Shown piece after piece: positions 25,788 through 45,208 of a stretch of 64,000 bases of DNA (positions are counted from its first letter, which is position 1; every line of letters begins with the position of its first letter). Both the position numbers and the translations under genes were made by a program. The notes below the pieces were generated by a model. It did no database searches, had not been told where the DNA came from, and worked only from the letters and a program-made list of their open reading frames with translations. The DNA is from an uncultured Bacteroidia bacterium (GTDB lineage Bacteria > Bacteroidota > Bacteroidia > NS11-12g > UBA9320). The stretch covers positions 890,713 to 954,712 of the forward strand of contig OX044357.1 in NCBI GenBank assembly GCA_943846675.1, read 5' to 3'.

Positions 25788-25801
25788 ATACTTTTTGAAC
25801 T

Positions 25802-26164: not shown

Positions 26165-26274
26165 TATTATTTACTTTTTAAGATTTGATAAAGCCTTGAA
26201 AGACGTCTTTCAAGATAATAAACTGTTACTTAACTTTATCTCTTAAGTGGTAAACATTAGGCTGACATTTTACA

Positions 26275-26896: not shown

Positions 26897-26953
26897 TGTA
26901 CGTCTTCAGCGAAAGTTGAACTTTTTGAGTGAAAAACTAAGAGAGAGTTCATG

Positions 26954-27928
26954 CTAATTTAGTTTAAATTTCTGATACTGTTTTTTACGAGCCTTAAGTG
27001 TCCTGATTTTGGTCTTTTTCCTTTGCTTCAATTTCACTTCGCCTTTTCCGTAGTAAACCTCAGCAGGAGTTAAGTTCTGCAAAGATTCGTGGTAGCGTTT
27101 GTAGTTGTAATACTCCACGAACTCGTTGAGTTTTCTTTCCAGTTGTTCAGGACTAAAATAATTGTCTAGTTTGACCACATTCTTCATGGATCGGTGATAG
27201 CGTTCTATCTTTCCTTGGGTCTGTGGATGTAACGGACGGCCTCTAATATGCTTCATATTTTGATTGCCAAGATATTCTGCAAGTTCATTGGATATGTAAC
27301 ACGACCCATTGTCAGATAGCAGTTTAGGCCTGTTCTCTTCAGAGACATCGGATGCCAATAAAGCCTCATCTATGGTGTCTTTAACGCCTTGAGCTTTCAT
27401 GTTAGAGCACAGTTTCCAGTTGATTATGAATCTCGAGTAATCATCCAAAATTGTTGAGAGGTAATACCACCCCCAACCATAGATTTTAAAGTACGTAAAG
27501 TCAGTTTGCCACATCTGGTTTACTTGTGTAGTCTTGTCATGAAAACTATCCGAAGCACTCATGATTCTAAAACTTGGTACTGAGATAAGACCATTGGCTT
27601 TCAAAATACGATAGACACTGGATTCGCTGATGTAATAGTTGAAGGTATCGGTGATATGCCAAGCCACCTCTCTAGGGGATAATTCTGGCTTCTCTAGAGC
27701 AATCTCTACCACCTTGTCTCGATCTAACTCATTAATCCTATTCCATGAACTTGGTCGAATACTGGGTTTACGTGCAAGACCATCATAGCCGCCTTCGGCA
27801 TATGCTTTGTACCAGTTATAAAAGGTGGTTTTGTTAAGTTTAAGCTCTCTGAGAGTACGTAAAACACCTAAGTCCGATTGCTCTACAAGCTGTATAAGCT
27901 CATATTTCTCCTGTTGACTGTAATGCAT
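26954..27928 (-). CDS. IS3-family transposase OrfB
   Basis: 'WQTDFTY', 'LLSDNGSCY', 'HPQTQGKIERYHRSMK'. Confidence 0.92.
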   Translation of the reverse strand: MHYSQQEKYELIQLVEQSDLGVLRTLRELKLNKTTFYNWYKAYAEGGYDGLARKPSIRPSSWNRINELDRDKVVEIALEKPELSPREVAWHITDTFNYYISESSVYRILKANGLISVPSFRIMSASDSFHDKTTQVNQMWQTDFTYFKIYGWGWYYLSTILDDYSRFIINWKLCSNMKAQGVKDTIDEALLASDVSEENRPKLLSDNGSCYISNELAEYLGNQNMKHIRGRPLHPQTQGKIERYHRSMKNVVKLDNYFSPEQLERKLNEFVEYYNYKRYHESLQNLTPAEVYYGKGEVKLKQRKKTKIRTLKARKKQYQKFKLN

Positions 27929-27939
27929 ATATCGCTTTC

Positions 27940-28290
27940 TTACAAGTCTTCTCCATTTGTATTTTTTTTCAAGGTTCTCACCTCTAAGGAAAGCTCTGCT
28001 ACCAACTCCTTCAAAGAACTATTTTCCCCTTTGAGCTCCTGCACCTCTGTAGTGTTAGCCTCACGCATTGTGTCGCCCGTTAGACGACGTTTGCCTGCTT
28101 CCATAAAGTCTTTAGCCCACTTGTAATAATTGCCTTGACTGATTCCTTCTTTTCTACATAATTCTGCGATGGTGATCTCGCCACGCATACCTTCAATGAT
28201 GATTCGAATCTTTTCTTCTGATGAATACGCTTTTCTTGTCTTTCTTTTTAAGTCACTGATTAGTGAACTTGTACTTTTCTTGTTTACCAT
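27940..28290 (-). CDS. IS3-family transposase OrfA
   Basis: 'SEEKIRIIIEGM...IAELCRKEGI...YYKWAKDF'. Confidence 0.9.
   Translation of the reverse strand: MVNKKSTSSLISDLKRKTRKAYSSEEKIRIIIEGMRGEITIAELCRKEGISQGNYYKWAKDFMEAGKRRLTGDTMREANTTEVQELKGENSSLKELVAELSLEVRTLKKNTNGEDL
27962..27969 (-). promoter_or_regulatory. probable -1 frameshift site (A8) for OrfAB of IS copy 2
   Basis: T8 on the plus strand lies within the last codons of orfA. orfB is in the -1 frame. Confidence 0.55.
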
Positions 28291-30313: not shown

Positions 30314-31189
30314 ATGAGTCAATACAAATTTTCTGGCCACGAGACGTTTCATTGTCGTCACTTTTGGTTGAAGAAAGGGTATGATTTTAATCAACTTGGA
30401 GGGGATCAAAGGTCTAATGACGCTGTGGTTCGTTTGGGAGTTGGAAAAAACATGGTTACATCCATCCATTACTGGATGAAAGCATTTAAAGTTACTAACT
30501 CCGAATCCTCAGAAATTACTGATTTTGGGCATTTCATATTTAGCTCGAATGGCAAAGATCCTTATTTGGAAGATATTGGCACTCTTTACATGCTACATTA
30601 CAACTTAATGACCAACCTGAACCAGGCTTCAATATATTCCATAACATTTGAAGAGTTTAGAAAAACAAGAATTGACTCAGAATTCACTGCTGAGTTATTG
30701 TTCGAGTTTGTGGCAAGGAAATTAAGAGTAGAGCGTCTTGACTATAGTGAGAAATCGTTAAGAAACGACATTAAGGTCTTTCTTCGAACATATCAGACTG
30801 CAACAAAACGGGGATCAAAAAGCATTGAAGATGATTTCGCTTCTGTCCTTCTAGAGCTGAATTTTGTAAACCCAATTCAAGATACATTCATAAATGCAGA
30901 ACAGGTGTTTCGCATCAGATACGATGAACAGCCACGTCTAAGCAAGTTAATTTTTTTGCATGCCTTACTTGATAGATATGAGGGGCAAGAATCAATTTCA
31001 GTTAAAGATATCCAAAGAGATGTGTCAGATAAGTTTTTATGTAACCGAGATGGGACTGAAAAAAAACTGAATGATTTATCTGACTCGGGCTATTTGGTTT
31101 ATAAACAAGATGCTGGAAGGAAAGAAATTCAGTTTAAGTCAAATTTGAACAAATGGGATGTTTTGAAAAAGTATTATGACGAGGTTTAA
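30314..31189 (+). CDS. sspB: DUF4007-family protein, SspB-like (phosphorothioation nickase component)
   Basis: The N-terminal 'FSGHETFHCRHFWLKKGYDF' is the hallmark I associate with DUF4007/SspB. First of three overlapping co-directional genes. Confidence 0.72.
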   Translation: MSQYKFSGHETFHCRHFWLKKGYDFNQLGGDQRSNDAVVRLGVGKNMVTSIHYWMKAFKVTNSESSEITDFGHFIFSSNGKDPYLEDIGTLYMLHYNLMTNLNQASIYSITFEEFRKTRIDSEFTAELLFEFVARKLRVERLDYSEKSLRNDIKVFLRTYQTATKRGSKSIEDDFASVLLELNFVNPIQDTFINAEQVFRIRYDEQPRLSKLIFLHALLDRYEGQESISVKDIQRDVSDKFLCNRDGTEKKLNDLSDSGYLVYKQDAGRKEIQFKSNLNKWDVLKKYYDEV

Positions 31190-32240
31190 GATTTCGACAA
31201 ATATCAATCGTGATGCCAATGCTGAACTAGATTTCATTGTCACTAAGAATGCAAATGAAGTATACAACCGTATAATCCATAATCATTCAAGAGGTCAGAA
31301 TTCATTTAGTATTATTGGTTCTTATGGAACTGGAAAATCGACATTCCTGTGGGCTTTTGAACATCATTTAAACGGAGATGTCAAATTTGATAGCCCTGTA
31401 AATGGTGAGTTTAAAGGTGTTAGAAAGTTTGACTTCAAACGAATTGTTGGTGAAGGCACCTCTTTTAAGAAACGATTTTGCATTGAGTTTGGTCTAGAAT
31501 CCCTTGTCAATCAATCAAATAAAGAAGTACTGTCTGAATTTGACCTTTTATGCAAGGATATAAACTCTCGAAACAGGGCCTTAGTGATCTTGGTCGATGA
31601 ATTTGGTAAACATTTAGAATTCATAGCCAAACACAATCCAGAAGAAATGTTCTTTATCCAAGAACTTGCAGAGTTCTGTAATGATTCAAGCAAACAAGTG
31701 CTATTCATAACTACACTGCATCAGAATTTTTCAGTTTATGCTAAGGGGTTGTCAGTAGCTGAAAAAAGTGAATGGGATAAGGTCAGAGGTCGACTAATTG
31801 ATATTGCTTTTGATGAACCTGTAGAACAATTGTTATTCTTTGCCTCTCAGAGGTTGAAACATATTCAAGTACCAGAGCTTTTAAAAGTACCGTATTGGAA
31901 ATTTGTTAAGACAATAGTAAGTTCACAATTACTAGGTAAGAGCTTGTCAAAACAAAATGACACGCTTGACAAACTGTTCCCGCTTGACCCTCTTGCTGCT
32001 GATATATTGACCAAATCACTCCAGAGATATGGCCAAAATGAGCGCTCCTTATTTACATTCTTGGAGTCACAAGAGTTGTCTGAAAAAATTGAACATCAAA
32101 TAGTATTCACTGTTCCAGATTGTTTTGACTATTTGATTCAGAATTTGTCATCGGAAGTAGAAAATGGTGAAAAAAAACCCTTTCAAGCCACAATGGAAAG
32201 CAGCTGTCTTAGCTTTAGAGAAAGCAGAGATTTTATTTGA
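31176..32240 (+). CDS. sspC: P-loop NTPase, N-terminal part of an SspC-like ATPase (frame ends just after an A8 tract)
   Basis: Walker A 'GSYGTGKST' and Walker B 'LVILVDEFGKH'. 14-nt overlap with the upstream gene. Confidence 0.62.
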   Translation: MTRFKISTNINRDANAELDFIVTKNANEVYNRIIHNHSRGQNSFSIIGSYGTGKSTFLWAFEHHLNGDVKFDSPVNGEFKGVRKFDFKRIVGEGTSFKKRFCIEFGLESLVNQSNKEVLSEFDLLCKDINSRNRALVILVDEFGKHLEFIAKHNPEEMFFIQELAEFCNDSSKQVLFITTLHQNFSVYAKGLSVAEKSEWDKVRGRLIDIAFDEPVEQLLFFASQRLKHIQVPELLKVPYWKFVKTIVSSQLLGKSLSKQNDTLDKLFPLDPLAADILTKSLQRYGQNERSLFTFLESQELSEKIEHQIVFTVPDCFDYLIQNLSSEVENGEKKPFQATMESSCLSFRESRDFI

Positions 32241-34428
32241 AAACGAATATAATGATGTTGCTAAGTTACTTAAAACAATTTGCCTAGTAAATATCTTTTC
32301 TAATGCCAATGGAACCTTAGATCTAGATGTATTGAGTGGGTATGCAAAATCCATTTTGGGTGTACCGAATCCAGAAGTAATTATTGACAAACTCATCACA
32401 AAACGCCTGATAAAATTTTCAAATTACCGTTCAAAATTTAATTTTATCGACGGAACGGATGTTGACATAGAACAGGAATTAATCGATGCATCTCAGCATA
32501 TTGAAAGTGAACTTAACTTAATTAGTAGGTTAGAGTCTTACTTTGATTTTGGCATTATCCCAGCCAAAAGAATTCAGTTTGAATTTGGCACTCCTAGATT
32601 TTTTCAATTCAAATTCTACGACGATTGGTCATATGAGGAACCCACGAATGAAATTGACGGACATATTAACCTGATTTTCACCAAGAAGCGCATTCTAAAA
32701 TCCATACAAGAAAAGGTAGAAGTTATTTCACCCGCACAAGTTTTTGTTTTATTTAAAGAGATAGACCAAATTGAGGACACCATTTTCGAAATTGATAAGA
32801 TTAACTACGTAATTCACAAATACAGTGAAGATAAAGTGGCTCTAAGAATTTTGAATGAAGAAAAGCTTTTCCGAACGAATCAATTGAAGTATTTCGTCGA
32901 AGGTGCTTTATTTGGGAAGGAATCAAAAGTTTCATGGATTTGGAATTCTACAATAGATGAACTTAATAAAGGTAAAAAGCGATCGATATACTCCTACAAA
33001 GCGTTGAACAAGCTTTTGTCAGATGCAGCTCAACAAGCTTATCCCAATACGCCGCAGTACAGGAATGAAATGGTTAATAAGGAGTTTTTATCTTCTCCTA
33101 TATTAACGGCTCGAAAAGCATTAATTCGTCAAGTTATCGCCAATGGAGATAAACCGAATCTAGGCTTTGATGAAAAGAGATTTCCACCGGAAAAGACCAT
33201 TTATTTATCCTTACTTAAGGAGACAGGGATTCACAAGTCCGAAGATGGAAGGTATTTCTTTGGGAAACCTCAAGATGTCACTTTACTACCTCTTTGGAAT
33301 GTTTGTGAAGCCATTTTAAAGTCTTCAAGCGAGTCAATTACTTCAGTAACCGAATTCTACAAGAAATTGCGTAAGGCTCCCTTTAAACTGAAACAGGGGT
33401 TTTTAGACTTTTGGATTCATTTATTCTTAGTAATGAAAAAAGAAGATTACGCACTTTATTACAATAGTGAAGAATACGTGCCACATCTATCTAGTGACAT
33501 GATGGATCTTATTTACAAACACCCTTCAAAGTACTTTGTAAAGGCACTATCTGCAGATGGTGTGCGCTCCGATTATCTTGGTTTCTACAAAGAACTGACA
33601 GGTTTCAATGAATCAGACATAAGTGGTTTGGAATCTAGTTATATTACAATTTACGGGAACTTTTTAAGATTTTATAGAGGGCTAGAGGATTACACGAAAA
33701 AAACCAAAACTGCACTGTCTAAAGAGGCTCTCGGTGTCAGGAATGCAATTGCAAATGCTAAAGACCCTGAGTCAGCATTATTTACAGGAATTCCAGAAGC
33801 TCTAGGTTATTTCAAAATAGAAAAATCTGATGAACAATTACATAGTTTTTTATTGGATCTACAAGGTGCTATAAAAGAAATTAGAGGAGCATATGATCAA
33901 TTAGTTGAGCAGCTAGAATTACAAATTAAGGAACATTTAAAAATTAAGGTTAATAGTTTCACTGAAATGAAAGAACAACTCACTATGTTGTTCTCTGGAA
34001 TCAATAAAAACTTAATTGCTAATGACAAGTTGCGTATTTTTTATACGCGCGTCGTTTCCCCCTTAGATGTAAAAAAAGCATACTGGGAATCTTTATGCGA
34101 CTCGGCTATTGGCAAAAAGCTTGACCAGATTAATGACGAGGAAGTACATTTGTTGCTAGATCGAATAAAAGGGAACTTTAGTACTCTACTAGATCTTGTC
34201 GACATTCATACAGTCGAATTAAAGGATCAGGAAGAAATCGTTCAGTTTGCAATTACCAAACCCTCAGGAGAAAACAGCATCAGACGAAATCTTATTGTTT
34301 CACCAAAGATTACGAAGAAGTCAAAAGAAGTGCAGAAGCGGATTGAACAGTTACTAGGAAACGAAACGATTGTGAACAAATTAGCACTCATAAGGTTATT
34401 AGAGAATGAATTAAAGAAGAATGACTAA
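32164..34428 (+). CDS. sspC: C-terminal part of the SspC-like protein (754 aa, helical)
   Basis: Opens in the +1 frame at the A8 tract (32170-32177). Removing one A fuses it to 31176-32240, giving ~1080 aa. Overlaps the sspD-like start by 8 nt. Confidence 0.58.
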   Translation: MVKKNPFKPQWKAAVLALEKAEILFENEYNDVAKLLKTICLVNIFSNANGTLDLDVLSGYAKSILGVPNPEVIIDKLITKRLIKFSNYRSKFNFIDGTDVDIEQELIDASQHIESELNLISRLESYFDFGIIPAKRIQFEFGTPRFFQFKFYDDWSYEEPTNEIDGHINLIFTKKRILKSIQEKVEVISPAQVFVLFKEIDQIEDTIFEIDKINYVIHKYSEDKVALRILNEEKLFRTNQLKYFVEGALFGKESKVSWIWNSTIDELNKGKKRSIYSYKALNKLLSDAAQQAYPNTPQYRNEMVNKEFLSSPILTARKALIRQVIANGDKPNLGFDEKRFPPEKTIYLSLLKETGIHKSEDGRYFFGKPQDVTLLPLWNVCEAILKSSSESITSVTEFYKKLRKAPFKLKQGFLDFWIHLFLVMKKEDYALYYNSEEYVPHLSSDMMDLIYKHPSKYFVKALSADGVRSDYLGFYKELTGFNESDISGLESSYITIYGNFLRFYRGLEDYTKKTKTALSKEALGVRNAIANAKDPESALFTGIPEALGYFKIEKSDEQLHSFLLDLQGAIKEIRGAYDQLVEQLELQIKEHLKIKVNSFTEMKEQLTMLFSGINKNLIANDKLRIFYTRVVSPLDVKKAYWESLCDSAIGKKLDQINDEEVHLLLDRIKGNFSTLLDLVDIHTVELKDQEEIVQFAITKPSGENSIRRNLIVSPKITKKSKEVQKRIEQLLGNETIVNKLALIRLLENELKKND

Positions 34429-35539
34429 AGTCAAACACATATTAGGTATTTCGGGTGGAAAAGACAGTGCGGCGCTAGCTTTGTACTTAAATCAGACTTC
34501 ACCTGAAATGGACATAGAGTATTACACTTGCGACACAGGGAGAGAATTAACTGAGACATATAAGTTGATTGACAGGCTTGAGAGTCGAATGGGTAAGTCA
34601 ATCAAAAAGCTAGATGCCGTTGATGTAAACAGTGTCGTGGACCAAAGTCCTTTTGACCATTTTCTTTCTTTGTATGGGGGGTACCTGCCATCATCTACCT
34701 CACGTTGGTGCACAAAAAAACTAAAACTAGAACCCTTTGAAAAATACATAGGGGATGAACCGACAATCTCATATGTTGGGATTCGAGGGGACGAAGACAG
34801 GGACGGATATATTTCAAAGAAACAAAGTGTACAATCAATTTTCCCATTTAGGAAGAATATCTGGAGCGAAGATGTTAATAGATTAGTCCTTGCCAATCAA
34901 AACCAAAAGAACTTTGAGACAATAGCCCGTAAAGTAATAAACCCTTATTATCTGGATAAAGTTCTCCAATTTGCTCAATGTCCCATTGATGTAAATTTTA
35001 ATCTAAAACAAAAATTGAATGCACTACTTGATGTAAGCATTAAGTCCTACAATCAAATTGTATTTGAATTTCTGAAAGAGACAGATTACCCTGTTGGTCA
35101 ACTAGATTCTTTTCCACTGGTTGAGAATGAAGATAATTTAGTCCTGGAAGATATATTCAAAATATTGAATGAATCTGGAGTTGGAATACCAGCGTATTAC
35201 AAGCCTTTGAATTATGAGGTGGAGATAGATGGAGAAAAGAAACAGGGAACATATAGCAGAAGTAGATCGGGATGTTTCTTTTGCTTTTATCAACAGAAAA
35301 TAGAATGGGTATGGCTGCTAGAGCATCACAAGGAACTTTTTGAAAAGGCGATGCAATACGAAAAGGATGGATATTCCTGGATGGATAGTGAAACACTTGA
35401 AGATTTAAAACAACCAGAACGCATTGAATCTATTAAAAAAGAACACTACCTGAGGATGAATCGAAATAGTCAACAGAAGTCCTGGAAAGACCAAATTCTT
35501 GAGGCCGATGGCGAAGGATGTGCTAGTTGTTTTATATAA
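34421..35539 (+). CDS. sspD: PP-loop ATP pyrophosphatase / PAPS-reductase-family protein, SspD-like
   Basis: 'GISGGKDSAA' PP-loop. C-terminal Cys clusters 'SGCFFCFY' and 'GCASCF'. Confidence 0.8.
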   Translation: MTKVKHILGISGGKDSAALALYLNQTSPEMDIEYYTCDTGRELTETYKLIDRLESRMGKSIKKLDAVDVNSVVDQSPFDHFLSLYGGYLPSSTSRWCTKKLKLEPFEKYIGDEPTISYVGIRGDEDRDGYISKKQSVQSIFPFRKNIWSEDVNRLVLANQNQKNFETIARKVINPYYLDKVLQFAQCPIDVNFNLKQKLNALLDVSIKSYNQIVFEFLKETDYPVGQLDSFPLVENEDNLVLEDIFKILNESGVGIPAYYKPLNYEVEIDGEKKQGTYSRSRSGCFFCFYQQKIEWVWLLEHHKELFEKAMQYEKDGYSWMDSETLEDLKQPERIESIKKEHYLRMNRNSQQKSWKDQILEADGEGCASCFI

Positions 35540-35540
35540 A

Positions 35541-36506
35541 TTAACTTTTATTCTTAAAATAAATAACCTCACTTCTTGCACCTGGCACATTCCACGAATA
35601 GTTATCGTCGAAGTAACAAATCCATACGTATAGAATCTTTATATAGTTGTTTAATTCAAAACTTCTAGGAGTGGGCACCGTCGTGGTATTATCAGAAAAC
35701 CACCTTCTTACTGCTCCAAATTGCATACTACCGCTTCTATCAGGATTCCTATCATTTGTACATAATTTAATAGCTTCCTTAAATTTCTCTATAAAGGGAT
35801 GTTGGTTAAAAACGTTTTTCAAATGATCAAAAAATTCAATTTCACTCAAGTCAATAATTATTCGATAGAGCTCTAGATCATGAGCGGCACAATCCATTTC
35901 CAACTCATTTTGTATTTCCCCAGAATATATTTTATATAACAATTCTGGGGAAGAAGTCATAGGCAATTGGTTGATGAGAAAGTAATCGTCAGTAGGCGGT
36001 GGTGTAGGAAGAGAAGGATAATCTACAACGGGCATTTCCACAGCGTTAACTAGATTTCTTATTTTTTTATAAAGTTCTTTATCTACATATTCACTTTCCA
36101 GAATAATCTTGTTAAGATAAGTTCTATCCGCAAAACTAAGTTTCTCGTTTAAGCCATTGAGTTCAAAATTGTATTCTCCTTTTTCCCCAACCCCTCTGCC
36201 AGTTACATTTGCCGAACCAAAAAACAAAGAGGTATGATTATCCCAAAAAGCTTTTAAATGAATTCTAGTGTTTCTATAAAGTGCTATGTTATTTTGCAAA
36301 CAATAATCATACAAATGAATATCGCTTACCCCTAAACACAAGTCACCTATTTCCCATCTTACGACAATTTGATTTATTTTTTTTGATTTATTTAATGTTT
36401 CAAGTTGAGCCATCTTTACATACGCAGAAAACAGGGTAACGTGATTAGAACTATTTATATAATTTAGTGCACCATGTTCCAAATTATCTCCGCTTCTATA
36501 CAACAT
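35541..36506 (-). CDS. phospholipase-D-family (single HKD) nuclease with an unrecognised C-terminal domain
   Basis: 'HLKAFWDNHTSLFFGSAN' has H-x-K and G-S-x-N spanning the canonical 18 residues. The ~170-aa C-terminus is unassigned. Its stop codon is 1 nt from the sspD stop. Confidence 0.75.
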   Translation of the reverse strand: MLYRSGDNLEHGALNYINSSNHVTLFSAYVKMAQLETLNKSKKINQIVVRWEIGDLCLGVSDIHLYDYCLQNNIALYRNTRIHLKAFWDNHTSLFFGSANVTGRGVGEKGEYNFELNGLNEKLSFADRTYLNKIILESEYVDKELYKKIRNLVNAVEMPVVDYPSLPTPPPTDDYFLINQLPMTSSPELLYKIYSGEIQNELEMDCAAHDLELYRIIIDLSEIEFFDHLKNVFNQHPFIEKFKEAIKLCTNDRNPDRSGSMQFGAVRRWFSDNTTTVPTPRSFELNNYIKILYVWICYFDDNYSWNVPGARSEVIYFKNKS

Positions 36507-36549: not shown

Positions 36550-38203
36550 TATGATTTATCCTGAGTTTTTCCCTGAAGACAGAGACGAATGAAATTGCTG
36601 AAAAAAAAGTATTTGAGCAATTAAAACGTATTTCAGACTACTTATGATATTTTCTATTCGAGAAAATTTATTACTGACGGTATAGGGAAAAAACCAGAGT
36701 ATGAAGTAGACTTTATCATTGCAATACCGGAGAAAGCCATTATTTGCCTAGAAGTTAAGGGTGGTATTATTAATTACTCTGGCAGCTAAAGATCAGTGGA
36801 CTCAAAACAGTAGACTTATGAGTAAACGACCAGATAGCCAAGCCTCATCTGCTTCACGCACGCTTTAATTAAAGGCTTTTCTGGTTTAATTGGTGATATG
36901 GCAATTGGGTGGGGTTTGTGTTTCCCAGATGGAGACCTTGGCTCTAAGGCGTTACCCGCCTCTATAGATTCTAACCAGATTATAGACCAATTAGGGGTAC
37001 TACATATAGACAAAGCCTTAGAGTTTCTTTTTGATTTTGTGAAAAAGCAAAATTCACACAGGCTGGGTGCTAGACGTTGGATGTACAATAAATTTAAAAC
37101 CGAACTACTCAGAGATATTGGTTTTGTTCAAGTATTAAGTACAAGAGTTAAGTATAACGAGCGTAATTTTATTGAGTTAACAAATACTCAGATATCTGTA
37201 TTTAATCGCTTAAAGGGTAATAAAAATATTATTACTACAGGCCCCGCAGGGTCTGGCAAAACCATTATCGCCAAAACACTTGGCACAAGATTTGCTATAA
37301 AAGAGGCAAAAGCGTGCTTTATTCTTATGCTTTAATAGAACCTTGGCAAATAAAATACGCTATGATTTTGATAGAGATGAGATCCGGTCATTGAAGTGGC
37401 TACCTTTCATTCCTTTCGCTAGGAAAATCATTGACCTTTACGATGCACACGCTGGTGGAAGGATAACAGCTCTTCTGAAGATTTTTGGGAGTTAGATGTG
37501 CCTGTAAAATTGGAGGAATGTCTCGCCTTTTTATCAAGATACACATTTGATGCTATCATCATCGATGAAGGACAGGACTTTAAAGAACTTTGGTTCGAGT
37601 TAATTTTTAGTTTAGGACATCCAAGACTGCCGGCAAGTACATGTATTTATGGATCGAAATGCAGGACATTTTTGGGCATTTCACCAAAATACCTAATGAA
37701 GACACTTTTATTCAAGTATAACCTACCTGAGAACTGCCGTAATACAAAAACGATTGTCAACTATTTGTCGCAGGCCATTGCTCAAAGACATTAAAATCGT
37801 TTGCCAAATAGTCCTGAAGGGTGAGGAGCCGTGGTGATTAAAAGTCCTTTACGAACCAATTAGAGCAACAAAAGTATGTCCTATTGGATGAGATTAAAGC
37901 GTTAGTACAAGAGAGCAGGGCATAAATGCCCAGAGCAAATACTAGTATTACTGAATTCTAGTAAAGCAGACAGTTGTTTGGGAACCACCACAAAGGCAGG
38001 CAAACTTAGAAATTAAAGCCTTAGATAACAAAGGTCGTTTTCAAAGAGATGCTGTAAATTATACGACTATTAACACTTTTAAAGGCTTAGAGGCAGATAT
38101 CGTTTTTATTGTAGATGCAGACAAAATACCTTTAGAACAAAAACACGAGAAGCTCTATACAGAAGCTTCTCGTGCTAGACATAAGTTGTATGTTTTGAAT
38201 TAG
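36550..38203 (+). pseudogene. NERD-domain / UvrD-like SF1 helicase, multiply frameshifted
   Basis: Fragments occur in three frames: NERD 'EYEVDFIIAIPEKAIICLEVKGG', Walker A 'TTGPAGSGKT', 'IIIDEGQDF', 'NCRNTK', 'INTFKGLEADIVFIV...EASRARHKLYV'. At least five frame breaks or stops. Confidence 0.75.
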
Positions 38204-40153
38204 TTATTTTATATTATCGCTTTCATTGGTTATATGCTCTTCCCAATATTGTGTGTCAACTTGTATAGATCCATTTTTTATGAATGACTCTAGTCTATCA
38301 CTTATTTTTCTCAAATAAGAATTTAAAATATGCTCAAGTTCATTATCATCTTGAATCATTTGTTCCATTTCATAAGCGTATGAGCAAATTAGCATTTCAA
38401 TGGCTATTGTAAACACACTGAGACTTTTATTTTGTTTTAATGGGTCAATAATATTCTTATAATAAATATGTTCCGTGTTTATAAAAGTGATTTTTTTACC
38501 TCTAACAGTTGTTAGTTCAAATAAGTTCCCGGTTGGATTATTATGATAAAGAACAATGGTCTTATTCATTCCAGCAGCAAAATTTTCAACTTGAAAAGTA
38601 ATAGACTCTTTTGAAAGGTGCATAAATCTTGTTTTCAGGAAACCTATTAATTCAACTTTCTGCTCTTTTGTCCATTCTTTCCCTTGCGGCATAGCCCTAA
38701 TAACAGCAGGTTCAGCTACCGGTAATGGGGTAGCTTCTTCATCTTCACTTGCAAGTGCGATTGCTTCTTTTTCCTCCCCTTTATATTGCCTCCAATAGTC
38801 TCTTCGAAAGCCTCTCATTTTTTCTATACAATCTTTAATTTCATTTGATATTTTATTGAACAATAATTGCTGTTGCTCGTTTACCCCAATGTTATCAATC
38901 TCTGATATATCCGCAGTCTCCTCATTTGAAACATACCGAAAGTCAACATGTTGCTTTTGATAATCTACACCCATCAAGTTATCTAGTTCACTGTCAAATT
39001 CAACTTCTATGGTCCAAAATCTATTAGTTTCATCAGTAACGGTATACATACCATAACTCCCACAATCTATTTCCCTTTTGGTACGTATAAAAAATATGTT
39101 TGCGCTAGTAAAATCTGATCCGCCACTCATTTTTTCACCGATTTTCCTACCCAAAGATGTTGCACCACCTTTTGAGTTTCCAGGATAAACTAGACTTTTT
39201 GTACCAAAAGCGGCTCTTATTGTGAAATAATATGCTTTGCCACCGAGTTCAATGTCGTACCGAACGTTCCAATAATCATCAAACTTTTGAAAGAGAGGTA
39301 GCGTTGTTTCATTTTCTTTACACCCGTCTATATACTTTTTGTAATGATAACTTGATGTGAACTTTTCGTTGTTTGGCACTTTAAGATTAAACATATTTCT
39401 TTTAGGATTTGTTGCTGCATCCCAAACAAAATCAGTGATGTAAGTTTTTTTCGTAGACAAAAATAATGGGTCATAGGGCAACACATTTTCTAAAATATCG
39501 TATTCGTTATTGCCTTTCAATATTGAGCCAAATGTAATTTCAAGATTTTCTTGTAGAGCATATCTATACAATCTTCCTGTTAACTTTTTAGTTTTATCAA
39601 TAACCGTTTTAGGTCTTCTTGAACCTAGGTTTTTAATTTTCGACCACCTAATTATGGTACTTGCATTAACTAAATCTATACTCACCTTAATACCTTTAAA
39701 TTTTGGTGTTTTTGCAACAGCATCATCATAACCCGGCTCTGGCCTAGTAGCTTGGTCATCTAAATCTAGGACAACAAAATTCCATTCACCTGATTTTTTA
39801 TCTTTGGAATAAACCTCTACTCTTCTTCCTACATAGATGGACGAATTGGGTAAGCCTACACCAAAAGTTCCAATTCTTTCGTTTGACGTTCCTGCCCCAT
39901 CAGCAAATCTTAAGCATCCATTAATTTCGTCAAAAGTCATTCCAGATCCATTGTCTATAAAAAAGACATCTGAAATAAATCTAGATCCCCTGCCACCTTC
40001 AACCCTCTGTTCCTCGACAAAAGTAATATCAATATTTGTCGCTTTTGAATCCACAGAATTATCAATGATTTCTGCCATTGCATATATTGGGCTTTTGTAC
40101 CCTGAATTAACAAGTTTTTCTACAAAGTGGTTTCCGTATAAATTATTTGCCAT
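38204..40153 (-). CDS. GHKL-superfamily ATPase (HATPase_c_3 / MORC-like), 649 aa
   Basis: Bergerat-fold motifs 'EIIDNSVDS' (N box), 'IDNGSGM' (G1), 'GTFGVGL' (G2). Last gene of the minus-strand operon. Confidence 0.8.
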   Translation of the reverse strand: MANNLYGNHFVEKLVNSGYKSPIYAMAEIIDNSVDSKATNIDITFVEEQRVEGGRGSRFISDVFFIDNGSGMTFDEINGCLRFADGAGTSNERIGTFGVGLPNSSIYVGRRVEVYSKDKKSGEWNFVVLDLDDQATRPEPGYDDAVAKTPKFKGIKVSIDLVNASTIIRWSKIKNLGSRRPKTVIDKTKKLTGRLYRYALQENLEITFGSILKGNNEYDILENVLPYDPLFLSTKKTYITDFVWDAATNPKRNMFNLKVPNNEKFTSSYHYKKYIDGCKENETTLPLFQKFDDYWNVRYDIELGGKAYYFTIRAAFGTKSLVYPGNSKGGATSLGRKIGEKMSGGSDFTSANIFFIRTKREIDCGSYGMYTVTDETNRFWTIEVEFDSELDNLMGVDYQKQHVDFRYVSNEETADISEIDNIGVNEQQQLLFNKISNEIKDCIEKMRGFRRDYWRQYKGEEKEAIALASEDEEATPLPVAEPAVIRAMPQGKEWTKEQKVELIGFLKTRFMHLSKESITFQVENFAAGMNKTIVLYHNNPTGNLFELTTVRGKKITFINTEHIYYKNIIDPLKQNKSLSVFTIAIEMLICSYAYEMEQMIQDDNELEHILNSYLRKISDRLESFIKNGSIQVDTQYWEEHITNESDNIK

Positions 40154-40158: not shown

Positions 40159-40770
40159 TTAATTATTTAAAGCTATTGTTTCTAGTAAGTTGTAATTTTC
40201 TAGTTTTGTTCTGTTGTCTCTTGTTAAATAAATTGTGTTGTTTTTATTACCTCCATTTTCAGGCCCTCTCATAGCTCTCCCTAGAATTTGTAACGCTGTT
40301 GTAACAGAATCAATATTTGCTAGTATCATTATGGAATTTAAGCCTGGTACGTCAATGCCTGTTGCGAGTATCCTCTCATTTACAATAATTGAAAGAGAGT
40401 CTTTGGTGCTACCTAAACGTTTTAAATAGTCTCTCCGATTTGCAGTGGGTGTTTCACCGACGATCAATTCATTTTCAATATCTTGCGATCTTAGATAAAG
40501 ACTTAAAGCAATGGCATGGGCCTTAGATTCTGCAAAAATTATCGTGTTTTCCCCTTTTTCAATTAAATTTTTACAGGTCTGATTTACACTTTCATGCAAT
40601 CCTTTATAATATGCTGATTTGTCAATTAACTTGTTACTCTTTTTTTCTGATGCCTCATTTATAACTTGATATTCAATATTAGATAAATAGTTCCTTTCTA
40701 TTAAATAATCGATCGGGCTAGGAACACTATTGTTGTCCTTATCTACTAATTGCAAATAATTATTAAACAA
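40159..40770 (-). CDS. SF2 helicase C-terminal (RecA2) domain; probably the 3' part of one frameshifted gene
   Basis: 'ILATGIDVPG' (motif V) and 'QILGRAMRG' (motif VI). TTG start in the ORF track. The frame stays open upstream into the preceding ORF. Confidence 0.7.
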   Translation of the reverse strand: MFNNYLQLVDKDNNSVPSPIDYLIERNYLSNIEYQVINEASEKKSNKLIDKSAYYKGLHESVNQTCKNLIEKGENTIIFAESKAHAIALSLYLRSQDIENELIVGETPTANRRDYLKRLGSTKDSLSIIVNERILATGIDVPGLNSIMILANIDSVTTALQILGRAMRGPENGGNKNNTIYLTRDNRTKLENYNLLETIALNN

Positions 40771-40775
40771 GGCCT

Positions 40776-41753
40776 TTAAAGTGCCAAATTCATCATCATC
40801 GGCTCTGAGCGGGTGGTAGCAGTTAATCCTACAATTTTAGGGTTGTTATTAAGTTTGATGTATGTATTAAAAATTTCTTGATACTGTTCTGCACCTGTGA
40901 AGTGTGCTTCATCGATAAATAAATAATCTAAATTCTTAATGAAATTTAAATCTTCATCAGCATTGCTATTAACTCTAGGTGTTAAGAGCTGAAAAGAAGC
41001 AAAGGTTATTTTGTCAATTTTATCATTATTAAAACTATTAAATCTATCCCAATATCTTTGGGCCATAACTAATCGATCTCCTTTTTGTTTCCAGATTTTT
41101 TGAAATGATTGTAAACTTTGTTCACAAAGTTCTTTTGAGTTTACAACCCACGCAATATTTAAGGGCAAGTCATTATTATGATTCCTAAACAAATCCACAA
41201 TAGTTTCCATTGCCAAAACCGTTTTTCCAGCACCTGTTGGCATTGTAACTAAGGTTTTGTTTGTATTATAGTTATACATGGCATTAAGATGTTTGGATAA
41301 GTTCTTTTTTACTCTTAATTGGTATGGATGCGGAAAGGCGTTTGTACCATTTGATTCTCCATATATAGGTATGGCATATTCAAAACTAGTCCTATTATCA
41401 TCAACCTCAATCGGTCTATATGACTCTTCAATTTTAAAATCTTGGAAAAACCGATTTATATCATTATTGTATACGTTAATAGCGTTGTCGTAGATATCGT
41501 CTTGATTCCCATCAAAACCTAAATCCATTAATGTGCTTGGAGCTAAAGCTTCTAAGAGTTGAGATCTCAACTTAGTATTATTAACTAAGTTAATTCCGTT
41601 ATGCAGAGCAACGGCTGTATTCAAAATTTCTCTAGGTAAGGCTTCGTTATCATTATTAACGAAAGTATATCTTATAATTTTAGTGGTATTATCACCTAAT
41701 ATTTTAGACTTGTCCTTATCGCTTAATTTCTTAATTAAATCATTTAGTCCCAT
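40776..41753 (-). CDS. SF2 DEAH helicase N-terminal (RecA1, ResIII-like) domain
   Basis: 'MPTGAGKTVLA' (I), 'LFIDEAHF' (II), 'GLTAT' (III). Ends 'TRSEPMMMNLAL*', whereas the +1 frame reads 'DDDEFGTLKALFNNY...' into the next ORF. Confidence 0.75.
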   Translation of the reverse strand: MGLNDLIKKLSDKDKSKILGDNTTKIIRYTFVNNDNEALPREILNTAVALHNGINLVNNTKLRSQLLEALAPSTLMDLGFDGNQDDIYDNAINVYNNDINRFFQDFKIEESYRPIEVDDNRTSFEYAIPIYGESNGTNAFPHPYQLRVKKNLSKHLNAMYNYNTNKTLVTMPTGAGKTVLAMETIVDLFRNHNNDLPLNIAWVVNSKELCEQSLQSFQKIWKQKGDRLVMAQRYWDRFNSFNNDKIDKITFASFQLLTPRVNSNADEDLNFIKNLDYLFIDEAHFTGAEQYQEIFNTYIKLNNNPKIVGLTATTRSEPMMMNLAL

Positions 41754-43015
41754 AATTCATTTTCAATTCTAAATATTACATTCTCAACTAATAAATGCGC
41801 TTCAGGGGATCCAAGTCTTCGTTTTTCCTCATTCATTATTCTGGTCACTGCCAGCAACACGTTTTTACTGTCCTTAACGTTAGTTCCTTTCTCATCACTT
41901 ACAGTTCCAGTTATCCTGAATGATGATAAAAATGTCTCAAGGGTCTCTCTCTCAACCTCATTTGTATCACAAAAAGAATCAATTAGTTTGGCCTTCCCTT
42001 TGCTAATTATTACTTCAAAGTTCGTAGAGGGTGAAATAGTAATGCAGTTGAATAAAAATGTTTCATTCAATATTTCGTTTTCCAACTTTAGTGTTCGACA
42101 TAGACCCCATAGTTTAACTATTGTTCTAAAATCTTCTATTTTTAGTAACGCGTGTAAGTAATGACAGATCGCTATTTGCCAAAAACGGACATTAAAATAT
42201 TCAATTGCAAAGTCATTCTCACTAATCTTTTCATGCAAAAATTCTAATTCCTCAGAAGTTACGATCTCATCTTCAAACACCAAATGGATAATATTGTCTA
42301 AGTAGGGATTATTATGATGAAGTGACGCTTTAGCCTTTTCTAGTAACTCGGGAGAGAACCCTAACTCTTTAATTTTACCTTTTAAAAAACTCTCTTCAGT
42401 TTCGGTTATGGTATTGTCACGTACAATACTATTGACCAAATTATCAAACTGGTAATTACCTGTTTTTACGTTTATATAATTCTTGTGCACTTCTTCTTTA
42501 AGCTGACTTGCTAAATCCATTGACCCTATTCGGCCACTAAGCTCCTTACTATATATTGATTCGCTCTCAGTCCAACTATTAGGTGTTACAGAACTGATAG
42601 GCTTCTGATCTTTCAAAGTATATGTCCAGGTATCTCTGTTATGGTCAACTTTGCTCTTTAAAGAGCCATACAAAAGCTTGCTTATTTCAGGTCGCGAATA
42701 CCTCAGATTATATTTTTGAAAGAGAATATTTCTTATTTCCTTAGCCTGTTTGGGTCTACCATTTTCTGATTTGAGAATTTCTAAGACTAATGCCCTTAGC
42801 TCATTATTTTGAACCTTTATCTCATGATGGACTTTATTCAGTTCCTCTTTCCGCCTTTTGCGTTCTATTTGGTCAGCTGTAAAGTGAATTTTATATTCCT
42901 TATGAATTATTTTCTGTATTTCCGAATTATTAGTCCCCGAATCTATTAATTCCACAATCCTATGGTTGTATGTTTTAAAGTTTGATTGCTTAGTCTTAAA
43001 CCTAATTTCTTTCAT
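41744..43015 (-). CDS. hypothetical protein (423 aa) with an internal TerB-like repeat
   Basis: Two ~25-aa motifs sit ~50 aa apart: 'DNTITETEESFLKGKIKELGFS' and 'EDEIVTSEELEFLHEKISENDF'. Overlaps both neighbours (14 nt and 10 nt), so it is translationally coupled. Confidence 0.5.
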   Translation of the reverse strand: MKEIRFKTKQSNFKTYNHRIVELIDSGTNNSEIQKIIHKEYKIHFTADQIERKRRKEELNKVHHEIKVQNNELRALVLEILKSENGRPKQAKEIRNILFQKYNLRYSRPEISKLLYGSLKSKVDHNRDTWTYTLKDQKPISSVTPNSWTESESIYSKELSGRIGSMDLASQLKEEVHKNYINVKTGNYQFDNLVNSIVRDNTITETEESFLKGKIKELGFSPELLEKAKASLHHNNPYLDNIIHLVFEDEIVTSEELEFLHEKISENDFAIEYFNVRFWQIAICHYLHALLKIEDFRTIVKLWGLCRTLKLENEILNETFLFNCITISPSTNFEVIISKGKAKLIDSFCDTNEVERETLETFLSSFRITGTVSDEKGTNVKDSKNVLLAVTRIMNEEKRRLGSPEAHLLVENVIFRIENELWD

Positions 43016-44069
43016 GACTTATAGATATCCTAATTGCGTTAAAGATAGAATTAATAGCTTTCAAAACATGTGAATCCTCTATAACACTTGAATTGCAAGC
43101 GCTTCCAGTGGATGCAATAAATTCTTTACTTTTCATCATTAAGAATTCATCAGCCTCAATGTTATTTAAAGAAATACTTAAAATGTGTGGTGCAGTAGGT
43201 ACAGTGGTGAAGTTCACTTTTCCAAGGTTTTGTTCAGTGAAGTACTTTTCCCATTTCTCCCTTTCTTCGTATAGGCGGGCCTCTCTTTGATCAAAATCTA
43301 TATGGGCAATTTTACAAGCCTCTCCGAAACCAACTATTAATGGGGTATTGTATGTTCCTCCTCTCATTCCTTGCTCCTGCCCTCCTCCATGAATTAGTGA
43401 TTCTAATTTTGTACCAGATTTTACAAATAGAGCACCCACGCCTTTAGGCCCATTCATCTTATGTGCAGATAAGCAAAGCATATCAATTTTATCTCTAAAA
43501 ACATTAACACTAACCTTACCTATAGCTTGAGTTGCGTCACAAAAGAAACAAATCGAATTATCTCTAGCAATCTTTCCAATACCTTGAATATCCTGGACAA
43601 CACCAATCTCATTATTCACATACATAATGGCGATAAGCGCGGTGTTTTCAGAAATAGCATTCTTTAAGTTGGTTAAAGAAATCAACCCATTTGAATCAAC
43701 ATCTAAATATGTTACCTCGTAACCTTTTGTTTCCAAATACTCGCAAGTGTTTAAAACTGCTTTATGCTCAGTTTTAACCGTTATAATGTGTTTGCCTTTA
43801 CTAGGATTTGCTTCTAAATATCCTTTCAAAGCCCAATTGATCGCTTCAGTAGCACCTGAGGTGAAGAAAATCTCGTTACTCTCTGCGTTTATGATTTCAG
43901 CAACATAGCCTCGCGCTTTTTCAATAACTATTTTAGCTTCTTTACCATAAACATGATTGCTACTAGCATTTCCAAATCTTTCATCGAAAAAAGGAAGCAT
44001 AACCTCTTTCACTCGTGAGTCAACTGGAGTGGTTGCGGCGTTATCCAAATATATTGGTCTTTTTGTCAA
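43002..44069 (-). CDS. cysteine desulfurase (class V aminotransferase; NifS/IscS/DndA/SspA-like)
   Basis: 'LDNAATTP', PLP-lysine 'SAHKMNGPKG', catalytic loop 'STGSACNS'. Confidence 0.9.
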   Translation of the reverse strand: MTKRPIYLDNAATTPVDSRVKEVMLPFFDERFGNASSNHVYGKEAKIVIEKARGYVAEIINAESNEIFFTSGATEAINWALKGYLEANPSKGKHIITVKTEHKAVLNTCEYLETKGYEVTYLDVDSNGLISLTNLKNAISENTALIAIMYVNNEIGVVQDIQGIGKIARDNSICFFCDATQAIGKVSVNVFRDKIDMLCLSAHKMNGPKGVGALFVKSGTKLESLIHGGGQEQGMRGGTYNTPLIVGFGEACKIAHIDFDQREARLYEEREKWEKYFTEQNLGKVNFTTVPTAPHILSISLNNIEADEFLMMKSKEFIASTGSACNSSVIEDSHVLKAINSIFNAIRISISHERN

Positions 44070-44137: not shown

Positions 44138-45208
44138 TTATTTAACCCCAGTGTTAGTCGGATACGCCCTCCAACCGAATACATTTAAGGCTGTTGAGTC
44201 AAGCCCCCTTTTTACATATTGCATATAAAGTTCGGGGTTTTCCTGTTTGAATAGTGTTTTGTCAAATTCTATTTTACTTTTGGGTTCACGTTTCCAACCA
44301 CACAAACCATCGATGCCCTCAGAGTTCCCTACAAGAATCTTTAATCGGGCTTCTAATCTTAAATAATCCCAACTATAGTTATGCTTATTTTTTTGAAGTT
44401 CGATATACTCTTTATGTAACTCCTCCAGTTCTCCTGTGCGCGGCACCAAAGCATCTTCATCTATTAGGTCAACCTTAATCTCTAATTTCGGTAGACCGTT
44501 CTTTTTTAAGTATAATTCAGGTTCTGTATCTTTTAAGCTTTTTTTACCCTTTAATGTAAAACTGCCAGATACTGGAGAAATCTTGATTGTCGCGTATTGC
44601 TCGTAAATACCTGGATTTTCAGCAGCAAAGGTATTCTTGTCAAAAGAATCTGTACCCCTTCTGATGACGTGTTTAGCAATGCCATCAATTGAACCAGACA
44701 TTCCAAGGATAAGTCCAATTTGAGATCGAATAATGTCAATTAGAGTTGCATTTCGATCCATTTCCACTTTCAACGAAATTAGATCTCCCCATAACTCTTC
44801 AGCTAACCTTGATGCAGAAATCATTTCCCCATTGGATGCCACATTTGCGAGCTCATAACTTTTTTCAAGGTCATCTTTGATTTCATTTTGCTCAGTGATC
44901 AATTGTTTTGCGATATGGATTGCTTCATCCATTTCAGTTATTGTCATATCAAACCATTCACCAGTAATCCATTTGCTCCCAAATTTATAGTGTAAATGGG
45001 TTTCGAGGTGCTCGACAAAAGGAGAAATGAGTGAACAATAGTCGTATATATTCCTAGGATTTCCTGTTTGGTGTTCCTTTATCCGCTGCTCTGTTTCTTT
45101 TGAATCCCTGACCAGCCCTATTTTAACATATCGAGTTGTTTCTTGGGATAAGAAGTCTTTTTCTCTAAGGAAATAAAGACGCCCACTTGTTAGTTTAACT
45201 TTTGCCAT
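44138..45208 (-). CDS. T5orf172 (GIY-YIG-like, MUG113-type) domain protein with a duplicated C-terminal module
   Basis: N-terminal 'GRLYFLRE...YVKIGLV...RIKEHQTGNP...GEWFD' pattern. C-terminal repeats 'FDKNTFAAENPGIYEQY' and 'FDKTLFKQENPELYMQY'. Confidence 0.6.
   Translation of the reverse strand: MAKVKLTSGRLYFLREKDFLSQETTRYVKIGLVRDSKETEQRIKEHQTGNPRNIYDYCSLISPFVEHLETHLHYKFGSKWITGEWFDMTITEMDEAIHIAKQLITEQNEIKDDLEKSYELANVASNGEMISASRLAEELWGDLISLKVEMDRNATLIDIIRSQIGLILGMSGSIDGIAKHVIRRGTDSFDKNTFAAENPGIYEQYATIKISPVSGSFTLKGKKSLKDTEPELYLKKNGLPKLEIKVDLIDEDALVPRTGELEELHKEYIELQKNKHNYSWDYLRLEARLKILVGNSEGIDGLCGWKREPKSKIEFDKTLFKQENPELYMQYVKRGLDSTALNVFGWRAYPTNTGVK

Follow-up and report, generated by a model that had tools for sequence, protein, structure and literature searches.

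The PLD gene and its operon

We analyzed a stretch of 64,000 nucleotides from an uncultured Bacteroidia bacterium (contig OX044357.1, positions 890,713 to 954,712 of the forward strand); we refer to the whole of this stretch as the window. It contains the sspABCD genes of a DNA phosphorothioation (PT) system, and our subject is the gene next to sspD, which encodes a predicted nuclease with a phospholipase D (PLD) fold and a single HKD motif. The PLD gene is the last gene of a minus-strand unit that begins with sspA, continues with a gene that we call X423, an SF2 helicase gene, and a gene for a GHKL ATPase, and converges on sspB-C-D. Another helicase gene lies antisense between the GHKL and PLD genes. 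The features of the locus, and within it of the PLD protein, are as follows.

30314..31189, plus strand: sspB (DUF4007); Pfam 1.4e-67, PADLOC 6e-80
31176..34428, plus strand: sspC (BrxC-like ATPase), 1083 amino acids when intact; two frames here, with PADLOC matches of 3.6e-109 and 3.3e-210
34421..35539, plus strand: sspD (PAPS-reductase-like); PADLOC 5.5e-85, Pfam PAPS_reduct
35541..36506, minus strand: predicted PLD-fold nuclease with a single HKD motif; intact open reading frame with an ATG start, 321 amino acids; short form without a sulfur-binding domain (SBD)
Amino acids 1-~155 of the 321-amino-acid nuclease, minus strand: PLD domain, from the AlphaFold2 model and Foldseek
36207..36260, minus strand: HKD catalytic motif, amino acids 83-100, H83-L-K85-AFWD-N90-HTSLFF-G97-S98-A99-N100
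Amino acids ~156-180 of the PLD nuclease: proline-rich linker
35544..35966, minus strand: family-specific C-terminal domain, amino acids ~181-321, mostly helical with a small sheet in the model
36551..38200, plus strand: NERD + UvrD-like helicase gene, 537 amino acids if intact; antisense to the GHKL and PLD genes, between which it lies
38204..40153, minus strand: MORC-type GHKL ATPase, 649 amino acids; Pfam HATPase_c_3 1.8e-15
40159..41753, minus strand: SF2 helicase, ~530 amino acids; Pfam ResIII/DEAD (ResIII 4.9e-24) and Helicase_C 1.4e-12
41744..43015, minus strand: X423, a 423-amino-acid protein of no recognizable family; overlaps sspA and the helicase gene
43002..44069, minus strand: sspA (cysteine desulfurase), the head of the operon; PADLOC SspA 2e-139, Pfam Aminotran_5 1.2e-72

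The initial annotation of this DNA had the PLD gene and sspD converging with their stop codons 1 nucleotide apart, and this is correct: the TAA of sspD occupies 35537-35539, the stop codon of the PLD gene occupies 35541-35543, and base 35540 lies between them. In most of the related loci that are described below, the spacer between these two genes is 1-60 nucleotides. Such a spacer leaves no room for a terminator, so the transcripts for modification and for the effector probably overlap, and this could couple their expression.

The same annotation overlooked sspA, the SF2 helicase, and the GHKL ATPase, which are encoded upstream of the PLD gene on the same strand. A view of the PLD protein as a stand-alone effector is not supported: its gene travels with the genes for the SF2 helicase and the MORC-type GHKL ATPase, in an operon that usually begins with sspA. 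In the window, the sspA, X423, helicase, and GHKL genes overlap or abut. The motifs E28..D31N32, D67xG69xG71, and G95xFG98xG100 of the GHKL ATPase are invariant in our alignment, and its sole match in PADLOC is MzaB. The helicase of the window has weak PADLOC matches to PbeA (3e-8 and 1.5e-8), BrxH, and ZacC (6.5e-5).

The assignment of our protein to the PLD superfamily is weak by sequence but clear from its predicted fold. Judged by sequence, the family is a divergent outlier. The scores of relatives against Pfam's PLDc_2 are at most 24.4 bits, and a scan of the window protein against NCBIfam gave no match. In PADLOC, the window protein matches only ZacB (1e-3, or more precisely 1.2e-3), and relatives match DrmC at 6e-7. 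We gathered 509 proteins of this family; the open reading frame of the window is identical to a metagenome allele (P0001), and no phage-borne homologs were found among 50,697 phage records. Because a search of PDB sequences with the family profile returned spurious matches only, we needed to search by fold. An AlphaFold2 model that was built from 58 homologs had a predicted local distance difference test (pLDDT) of 88.6 and a predicted template modeling score of 0.78. The top match of this model in Foldseek was the PLD nuclease domain of SauUSI (7clg_A, E = 5e-6). Further matches were to phosphatidylserine synthases (E ~1e-4), NucT (6ehi_D, E = 8e-4, template modeling score on the target of 0.65), Zucchini, and PLD3. 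The earlier description of the protein as a single-HKD PLD nuclease is supported, with nuclease activity as a prediction.

The HKD motif was also said to be intact. The motif, HLKAFWDNHTSLFFGSAN, spans amino acids 83-100 of the protein and follows the pattern H83-x-K85-x4-N90-x6-G97-S98-A99-N100. If we compare this to the canonical HxK(x)4D(x)6GSxN, then the H, K, G, S, and N are all present with the canonical spacing, but the position of the aspartate is N90. In Nuc, the canonical aspartate is structural and not catalytic. Across the 58 homologs, H83, K85, G97, S98, N100, N113, and E115 are invariant. Of these, the H, the K, N100, N113, and E115 stay invariant even where the identity of relatives falls to ~25%.

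Could this protein be a lipid-metabolizing or other non-nuclease enzyme of the PLD superfamily, or an inactive relic? The gene sits in DNA-modification operons with a helicase, and some relatives are fused to readers of DNA modifications. Although Foldseek does find phosphatidylserine synthases, the protein has a single HKD motif and its best fold match is a restriction nuclease. And although the match to Pfam is below threshold and the canonical aspartate is absent, the catalytic residues (H, K, S/T, N, and E) have been kept over deep divergence. We find this explanation hardly credible.

Linkage to phosphorothioation genes

The close relatives of the PLD gene have an identity of 37% or more. 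Scanning a single genome for each species gave 19 loci, from Flavobacteriales, Cytophagales, Sphingobacteriales, and Maribellus, and a scan of metagenomes added 80 more, for a total of 99. Across these loci, the PLD family is near-obligately linked to PT genes. sspD adjoins the PLD gene in all 19 of the genome loci, and all 18 of those with enough flanking DNA contain sspB-C-D, the GHKL ATPase, and the helicase. Similarly, sspC, sspD, the helicase, and the GHKL ATPase are present in 36 of the 36 loci, among the 99, that extend for at least 15 kb. If we relax this to loci of at least 12 kb, then the helicase and the GHKL ATPase are present in 51/51, sspBCD in 50/51 (the exception has just 2.2 kb downstream), sspA in 42/51, and the NERD helicase in 20/51. 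X423 is a variable component (12 of 58 loci).

Although the gene content is kept, the order of the genes varies. The helicase, GHKL, and PLD genes overlap or are 1-20 nucleotides apart in most loci, and they may be ordered as helicase-GHKL-PLD or as GHKL-helicase-PLD; they may be convergent with sspBCD or co-directional after sspBCD, or the PLD gene may come first and be followed by sspBCD. More distant relatives (~28% identity; 50-58% GC) keep the content as well: we found sspB-sspC-sspD-helicase-GHKL-PLD in L102, L103/L104, L107, and the contig of P0410, and a convergent arrangement with sspABCD in L105. The same content is also found on plasmids of cultured organisms from three phyla, namely Hymenobacter sp. 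GOD-10R (NZ_CP141190.1), Roseobacter litoralis B14 (pROLI83, NZ_CP143425.1, 67.4-80 kb), and Trichormus variabilis ATCC 29413 (plasmid A, NC_007410.1, ~323-337 kb). These plasmid relatives, at 24-30% identity, are spread over Alphaproteobacteria, Cyanobacteria, and Cytophagales. So the neighborhoods of this family are not random with respect to PT genes: the linkage is seen in every one of the 36 long loci, and it holds across phyla and rearrangements.

The PT genes need not be ssp genes. At one locus (L106 4319-16120), a family member of 291 amino acids (P0406) is encoded directly upstream of dndB-dndC-dndD-dndE, and the locus also encodes a ParB_N protein and a helicase that differs from that of the trio. 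The PLD nuclease family is not strictly Ssp-specific, but it is PT-specific.

An alternative is that the helicase, the GHKL ATPase, and the PLD protein form an autonomous defense system, similar to Azaca, DISARM, or type IV enzymes, that shares genomic islands with Ssp and makes no use of the PT marks. The island in the window is indeed a mosaic with insertion sequence (IS) elements and other nuclease genes. However, co-occurrence in 36/36 and 50/51 loci that survives rearrangement and a change of phylum is not what would be expected of chance neighbors in an island. In one clade, in which the PLD protein has an EVE domain, the genes are GHKL-helicase-PLD and there is no sspBCD in the 10 kb upstream, but even this locus has an SspA-like gene (45% identity) that converges on the PLD gene. 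Also, sspA is usually in the same operon as the trio, and in 13% of representatives, the nuclease itself bears a fused SBD. The other evidence for an autonomous system is one orphan member of the family and the weak PADLOC likeness to ZacB/ZacC and DrmC. Overall, we consider an autonomous system to be unlikely.

We also examined the relationship of the PLD gene to SspE. The initial annotation saw no DUF262/DUF1524 (SspE-like) gene in the window, and our searches agree: tblastn with the SspE-like proteins from related loci found nothing better than E = 0.5, and a six-frame scan of the window for the motif DGQ[QH]R found none. It also suggested that the PLD gene sits in the slot where SspE would be, and the related loci speak against this. 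A GmrSD_N (DUF262) protein of 677-719 amino acids, with an SspE-like architecture, is encoded near sspBCD and the PLD gene in 10 of the 99 loci, and the PLD gene is retained in all of them. In the three that we inspected in detail (L002, L010, and L018), the SspE-like gene has sspD to one side and the PLD gene to the other. On the Hymenobacter plasmid, a DUF262 gene adjoins the PLD gene, and other loci have DndB/DGQHR-like genes at the place of the SspE-like gene. Because SspE-like genes and PLD genes are present together, the trio coexists with SspE-like proteins and does not replace them; the 1-nucleotide convergence in the window is simply a compact version of the locus. We had also considered whether the PLD protein might be SspE or SspFGH in disguise, but scans with PADLOC, Pfam, and NCBIfam were negative.

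Two other genes recur at these loci. A protein of ~540 amino acids with NERD and UvrD-like helicase domains is encoded in 24 of the 58 loci that extend for at least 8 kb, some of which are deeply divergent. The module may thereby have an optional fourth component. Its gene varies in position and in orientation (36551-38200 in the window, 9284-10903 in L103, 11944-13593 in L107, and 2754-4289 in L115). Also, a gene for a PC4-like protein (the fold of the single-stranded-DNA-binding transcriptional coactivator p15) lies between the GHKL and helicase genes in L009 (7869-8363), in L107 (7535-8164), and in the contig of P0410. This fold drew our attention as Ssp modification is single-stranded.

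The C-terminal domain and fused modification readers

According to the initial annotation, the ~170 C-terminal amino acids of the PLD protein match nothing and could be a sensor of DNA or PT. We agree about the first part: the C-terminal ~140-170 amino acids match no family in Pfam, NCBIfam, or PADLOC, and no fold in PDB is significantly similar. The AlphaFold2 model of the isolated domain is confident (pLDDT of 86.9), and its recurring weak matches in Foldseek are to winged-helix domains. The domain has several invariant features, namely H209-D210, FNxHPFI, W269, and a loop, N-T-T-T-V-P-T-P-R, that becomes C-x-D-V-P-x-P in distant relatives. When we compared a profile of the domain to 1.84 billion representative proteins, it matched 358 clusters, and in the full-length members among the best 150 of these 358 clusters, the domain is at residues ~170-320, directly behind the PLD domain. 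The C-terminal domain is private to this family of PLD nucleases. It may be a winged-helix-like domain that binds DNA or that binds a partner, which may be the helicase or the GHKL ATPase.

As for PT sensing, the domain is not related to the known sulfur-binding domains. For a comparison of the domain to the SBD, hhalign gave a probability of 0.5%, and Foldseek returned no SBD and nothing below E = 0.3. So we rejected the C-terminal domain as a candidate SBD. Also, when we searched all six-frame open reading frames of the window with a hidden Markov model of the SBD, including X423, the helicase's N terminus, the C terminus of the GHKL ATPase, and an HNH_2 protein that is encoded upstream of sspA, there were no significant matches (the best was E = 0.017, for a fragment of the helicase). 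This HNH_2 protein has no detectable SBD; at L107, an HNH_2 protein that does have an SBD (10937-11941) is encoded right after the PLD gene.

The idea of PT sensing at the C terminus fails for the window protein, but it has merit for some of its relatives, which have an SBD as an additional C-terminal domain. About a quarter of 100 full-length representatives of the PLD family are longer than 400 amino acids. In long forms of 435-500 amino acids, the C-terminal extension of ~130 amino acids matches SBD_Hga (PDB 8h0l), with E = 3e-7 for a single sequence and E = 4.4e-18, over the whole domain, for a profile. The extension also matches the SBD of ScoMcrA (5zmo, E = 0.012). The sulfur-pocket motifs of SBDs are PH(K/R/Q) and (Y/M/L)P; in the extension, the "PH(Q/K)" motif is retained, a proline at the position of the Tyr-Pro sulfur pocket of ScoMcrA is invariant, and the precomputed Pfam match of one long form is DNA-SBD_ScoMcrA. 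This SBD is present in 13 of the 100 representatives (including proteins from Salinimicrobium sediminis, at L014, and from a metagenome-assembled genome of Nonlabens, at L019), and 77 of the 100 are short forms like the protein of the window.

Other long forms have other readers. We found an EVE domain (E = 6.9e-5) and a McrB-N-like domain (6p0f, E = 0.005), as well as weak matches to SRA-like (E = 0.16, not significant) and Mrr_N-like domains. The clade with the EVE domain (L113/L114 4809-11800) is represented by 24 marine contigs with 31% GC; its gene order is Lactamase_B_2-GHKL-helicase-PLD-Cdom-EVE, the protein with the EVE domain has 599 amino acids, and the SspA-like gene mentioned above is at the end of the contig. 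This clade may read a base modification besides, or instead of, PT. The core of HKD and C-terminal domains is a nuclease chassis that has repeatedly acquired readers of DNA modifications, and above all the PT reader.

A candidate effector arm of Ssp systems

We propose that the PLD gene encodes the nuclease subunit of a three-gene, ATP-dependent module, comprising the SF2 helicase, the MORC-type GHKL ATPase, and the PLD protein, and that this module serves SspABCD as a PT-coupled restriction or effector arm, next to SspE-like proteins and at times jointly with them. We think that this is quite probably right. Our proposal for how the module would work is based on the precedents of SauUSI, PbeA, the operons that combine MORC with an SFII helicase and a nuclease, and Azaca. 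The three proteins would form a complex in which two HKD subunits, like those of Nuc, BfiI, and SauUSI, pair and share a single active site. The helicase would use ATP to translocate on DNA, and the GHKL ATPase would be a dimerizing, nucleotide-gated clamp or switch that licenses cleavage. The complex would tell the host's DNA from an invader's by reading the PT marks that are written by SspABCD, and the HKD nuclease would then nick or cut the DNA of the invader. The reader would be the fused SBD in the long forms and another surface in short forms such as the window protein. As for the polarity, PT might protect the host's own DNA, as for DndFGH or SspFGH, or it might activate the enzyme, as for SspE. 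The SBD fusions would fit with either.

The genes might instead serve the modification side of the system, for example by processing nicks, by turnover or repair of PT, or by controlling the density of PT as DndB does for Dnd, with no role in restriction. HKD enzymes form a covalent phospho-histidine intermediate and transfer reactions are possible, so their chemistry would allow this; the trio is co-operonic with sspA; and an SBD fusion would suit an enzyme that acts at PT sites. But for the SspABCD of Vibrio and of E. coli, DNA modification proceeds in the absence of proteins like these (PMC8092258 and work that it cites). Also, the nearest relatives by structure or architecture are restriction nucleases (SauUSI, PbeA, DrmC, and Azaca; PMC10853773), the combination of MORC, SFII helicase, and nuclease is a theme of restriction systems (PMC2292703), and sister members have readers that are typical of type IV enzymes (the EVE domain and, with weaker matches, the McrB-N-like and SRA-like domains). 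A role in modification alone seems very unlikely to us.

Several observations weigh against a PT-coupled nuclease module. In Pfam, the match of the window protein to PLDc_2 (E = 0.006, 16.8 bits) does not reach the gathering threshold of 27 bits, and the position of the canonical HKD aspartate is N, S, G, or Q in this family. The orphan member adjoins a LysR gene, and the 10 kb at this locus contain no PT genes. The isolated C-terminal domain has no significant match in PDB (the best Foldseek match has E = 0.32), and the SBD profile finds no PT reader in the short-form protein of the window. Finally, the sspC and helicase genes of the window are frameshifted, and if these frameshifts are real, then the system is inactive in this genome.

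These frameshifts look like uncorrected errors in long reads rather than decay. In the window, sspC is split by an extra A in a run of A at ~32177, the SF2 helicase gene is split by a 2-nucleotide insertion (TG) at 40814-40815, and the NERD helicase gene is riddled with stop codons. All three genes are intact in five independent metagenome contigs from this population (L108-L112), which encode an identical GHKL protein; the intact allele of the SF2 helicase on these sister contigs has 530 amino acids. Outside of 36.55-38.05 kb, the window and one of the sister contigs are essentially identical over 18 kb. Those 1.5 kb correspond to the NERD gene; when they are compared to the sister contigs, there are 61 mismatches, 39 insertions, and no deletions in the window, and nearly all of the remaining indels in the comparison to the one sister contig are insertions as well. 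Because this pattern looks like uncorrected long-read error, we draw no functional conclusion from the "pseudogenes" of the window. We had considered that the island might be decaying, and that the joint loss of its genes would support a logic like that of restriction-modification systems, but we dropped this idea given the five intact sister contigs and the insertion-only pattern.

How does the module compare to known systems? PbeABCD is linked to Dnd, and PbeA is an HKD endoDNase that is fused to an SF2 helicase (PMC10853773, PMC6459918). The module resembles PbeABCD in that an HKD nuclease and an SF2 helicase are encoded beside PT genes, the helicase of the window weakly matches PbeA, and one member of the PLD family is beside dndBCDE. 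However, the nuclease and the helicase are separate genes in our module. It always includes a GHKL ATPase, while Pbe has the CxC ABC ATPase PbeC, the DndE-like PbeD, and the small protein PbeB, and Pfam scans of the window operon found no ABC ATPase or DndE-like gene. Its modification partner is Ssp, with SspB and the BrxC-like SspC, and not DndCDE. And its HKD protein comes with a C-terminal domain of its own, to which some members add an SBD.

For operons in which MORC or paraMORC proteins are encoded next to an SFII helicase and to a nuclease, at times of the HKD type, a role as ATP-dependent modules for restriction was predicted (Iyer, Abhiman & Aravind 2008, PMC2292703). The window has the same combination of a HATPase_c_3 GHKL protein, an SFII helicase, and a predicted nuclease, and these three genes are adjacent in 51/51 of the loci that extend for at least 12 kb. 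But the modules that were described in 2008 are paired with DNA methylases, while the partner in the window is SspABCD (we found no DNA methylase among the scanned genes of the operon), and in our family, the nuclease can have an SBD. SauUSI (PDB 7clg), the best structural match for the N-terminal domain, follows the same logic, in which a PLD nuclease works with a helicase as motor and with a domain that reads modifications; in the long forms of our family, this domain is an SBD or EVE domain. SauUSI is a single polypeptide (PLD, SF2 helicase, and an SRA-like target recognition domain) and an ATP-dependent type IV enzyme without a GHKL ATPase; it reads 5-methylcytosine or 5-hydroxymethylcytosine and attacks modified DNA. 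In contrast, the module of the window has multiple subunits and is encoded with the enzymes that modify the host's own DNA.

SspE and SspFGH are the two restriction partners of Ssp that have been described (PMC9646914, PMC8092258). Like them, the trio is encoded beside sspBCD and is presumed to be the effector arm, and like SspFGH, it can coexist with an SspE-like gene (PMC8092258). However, neither of the two is related to our module in sequence or in domains. SspE combines an N-terminal DUF262 domain (DGQQR), for NTPase activity and PT sensing, with a C-terminal DUF1524 His-Me nuclease, and by Pfam and PADLOC, the PLD protein has neither. SspFGH comprises SspF, a Walker-A protein, SspG, and SspH with its FtsK-like C terminus, and differs from our module in domain content (PMC8092258); the PADLOC models for SspF, SspG, and SspH do not match the PLD, GHKL, helicase, or X423 proteins.

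The PLD subunit of Azaca cuts DNA in vitro only if all of the subunits and the Walker A motif of the helicase are present (bioRxiv 10.1101/2025.07.10.664194). Azaca and DISARM also pair a PLD nuclease with an SF2 helicase. The profile matches to ZacB (1e-3 to 4e-6), ZacC (6.5e-5), and DrmC (6e-7) are weak. But our module has no partner like ZacA (DUF6361) or DrmB (DUF1998), with no DUF6361 protein in the Pfam scan at the window, and Azaca and DISARM have neither a GHKL ATPase nor a link to PT. The long forms of our family also resemble type IV enzymes with SBD and HNH domains (ScoMcrA, or the isolated SBD of Hahella ganghwensis, 8h0l) in that the same SBD is fused to a nuclease. Unlike those enzymes, the PLD proteins have HKD instead of HNH domains and are encoded with, not against, the writers of PT, and the window protein has no SBD. 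In short, the module does not match SspE, SspFGH, PbeABCD, Azaca, or DISARM. It fits the theme of MORC, SFII helicase, and nuclease, with phosphorothioation in place of methylation.

As far as we can tell, this combination has not been described before. A full-text search of the literature did not turn up any account in which a PLD, GHKL, or helicase protein is the partner of Ssp, in keeping with the initial annotation's remark that no PLD nuclease was known in this role, though the literature beyond the searchable set may differ. A review from 2025 lists dndFGH/sspFGH, sspE, and pbeABCD as the proposed branches of PT restriction (PMC12707154). A reappraisal of Dnd from 2024 and a survey of BREX from 2026 touch on Ssp in passing (PMC10853773, PMC12839542), and the MORC paper of 2008 (PMC2292703) and the Dnd reappraisal (PMC10853773) contain the general themes but not this module. 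So what we describe is a new effector module, assembled from known parts, in a PT-based system that resembles restriction-modification. Its specific interest lies in the fusions of the SBD to the nuclease, in the MORC-type ATPase, and in the tractable hosts.

The trio is a concrete candidate for the effector of a large group of "orphan" Ssp systems: SspE or SspFGH is present in only ~15% of 2,678 sspBCD loci, and ~85% have neither (PMC8092258). It also touches on an open question in the field, which is how PT can be used to discriminate self from nonself when the sites are only partially modified. Because a subset of the nucleases have a bona fide SBD, the reading of PT by the effector is directly testable. 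Furthermore, the complete system is present on plasmids of hosts that can be cultivated and are genetically workable (Trichormus variabilis ATCC 29413, Roseobacter litoralis, and Hymenobacter). If our proposal is true, then this would be the first MORC-type GHKL ATPase, a prokaryotic relative of the MORC chromatin ATPases of eukaryotes, that is coupled to a modification of the backbone rather than of a base.

There is a broader version of the proposal about which we are of two minds, leaning slightly towards doubt. The combination of helicase, GHKL ATPase, and HKD nuclease might be a fourth widespread branch of PT restriction, after DndFGH/SspFGH, SspE, and PbeABCD. It would be the main partner of Ssp in marine Bacteroidota and would be present in Alphaproteobacteria and Cyanobacteria as well. 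A MORC-like clamp would gate the PLD nuclease according to PT, and the C-terminal domain of the short forms, with its TTTVPTP loop, would be a new discriminator of DNA or PT or else the docking site for one.

Finally, we note some other features of the island in the window. Directly upstream of sspA, on the same strand, are a gene for a T5orf172/MUG113 (GIY-YIG-like) protein (44138-45208) and the gene for the HNH_2 protein (261 amino acids; 45270-46055). Two copies of an IS element that encodes an rve transposase of 325 amino acids, at 24765-26150 and 46400-47785, are 98.6% identical over 1,385 bp, are inverted relative to each other, and bracket the whole of the Ssp and defense island. A third, related copy (26954-28290, with orfA at 27940-28290) adjoins a truncated SNF2/ResIII fragment (26247-26957). 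The IS-bracketed Ssp island may be a mobile island that resembles a composite transposon.

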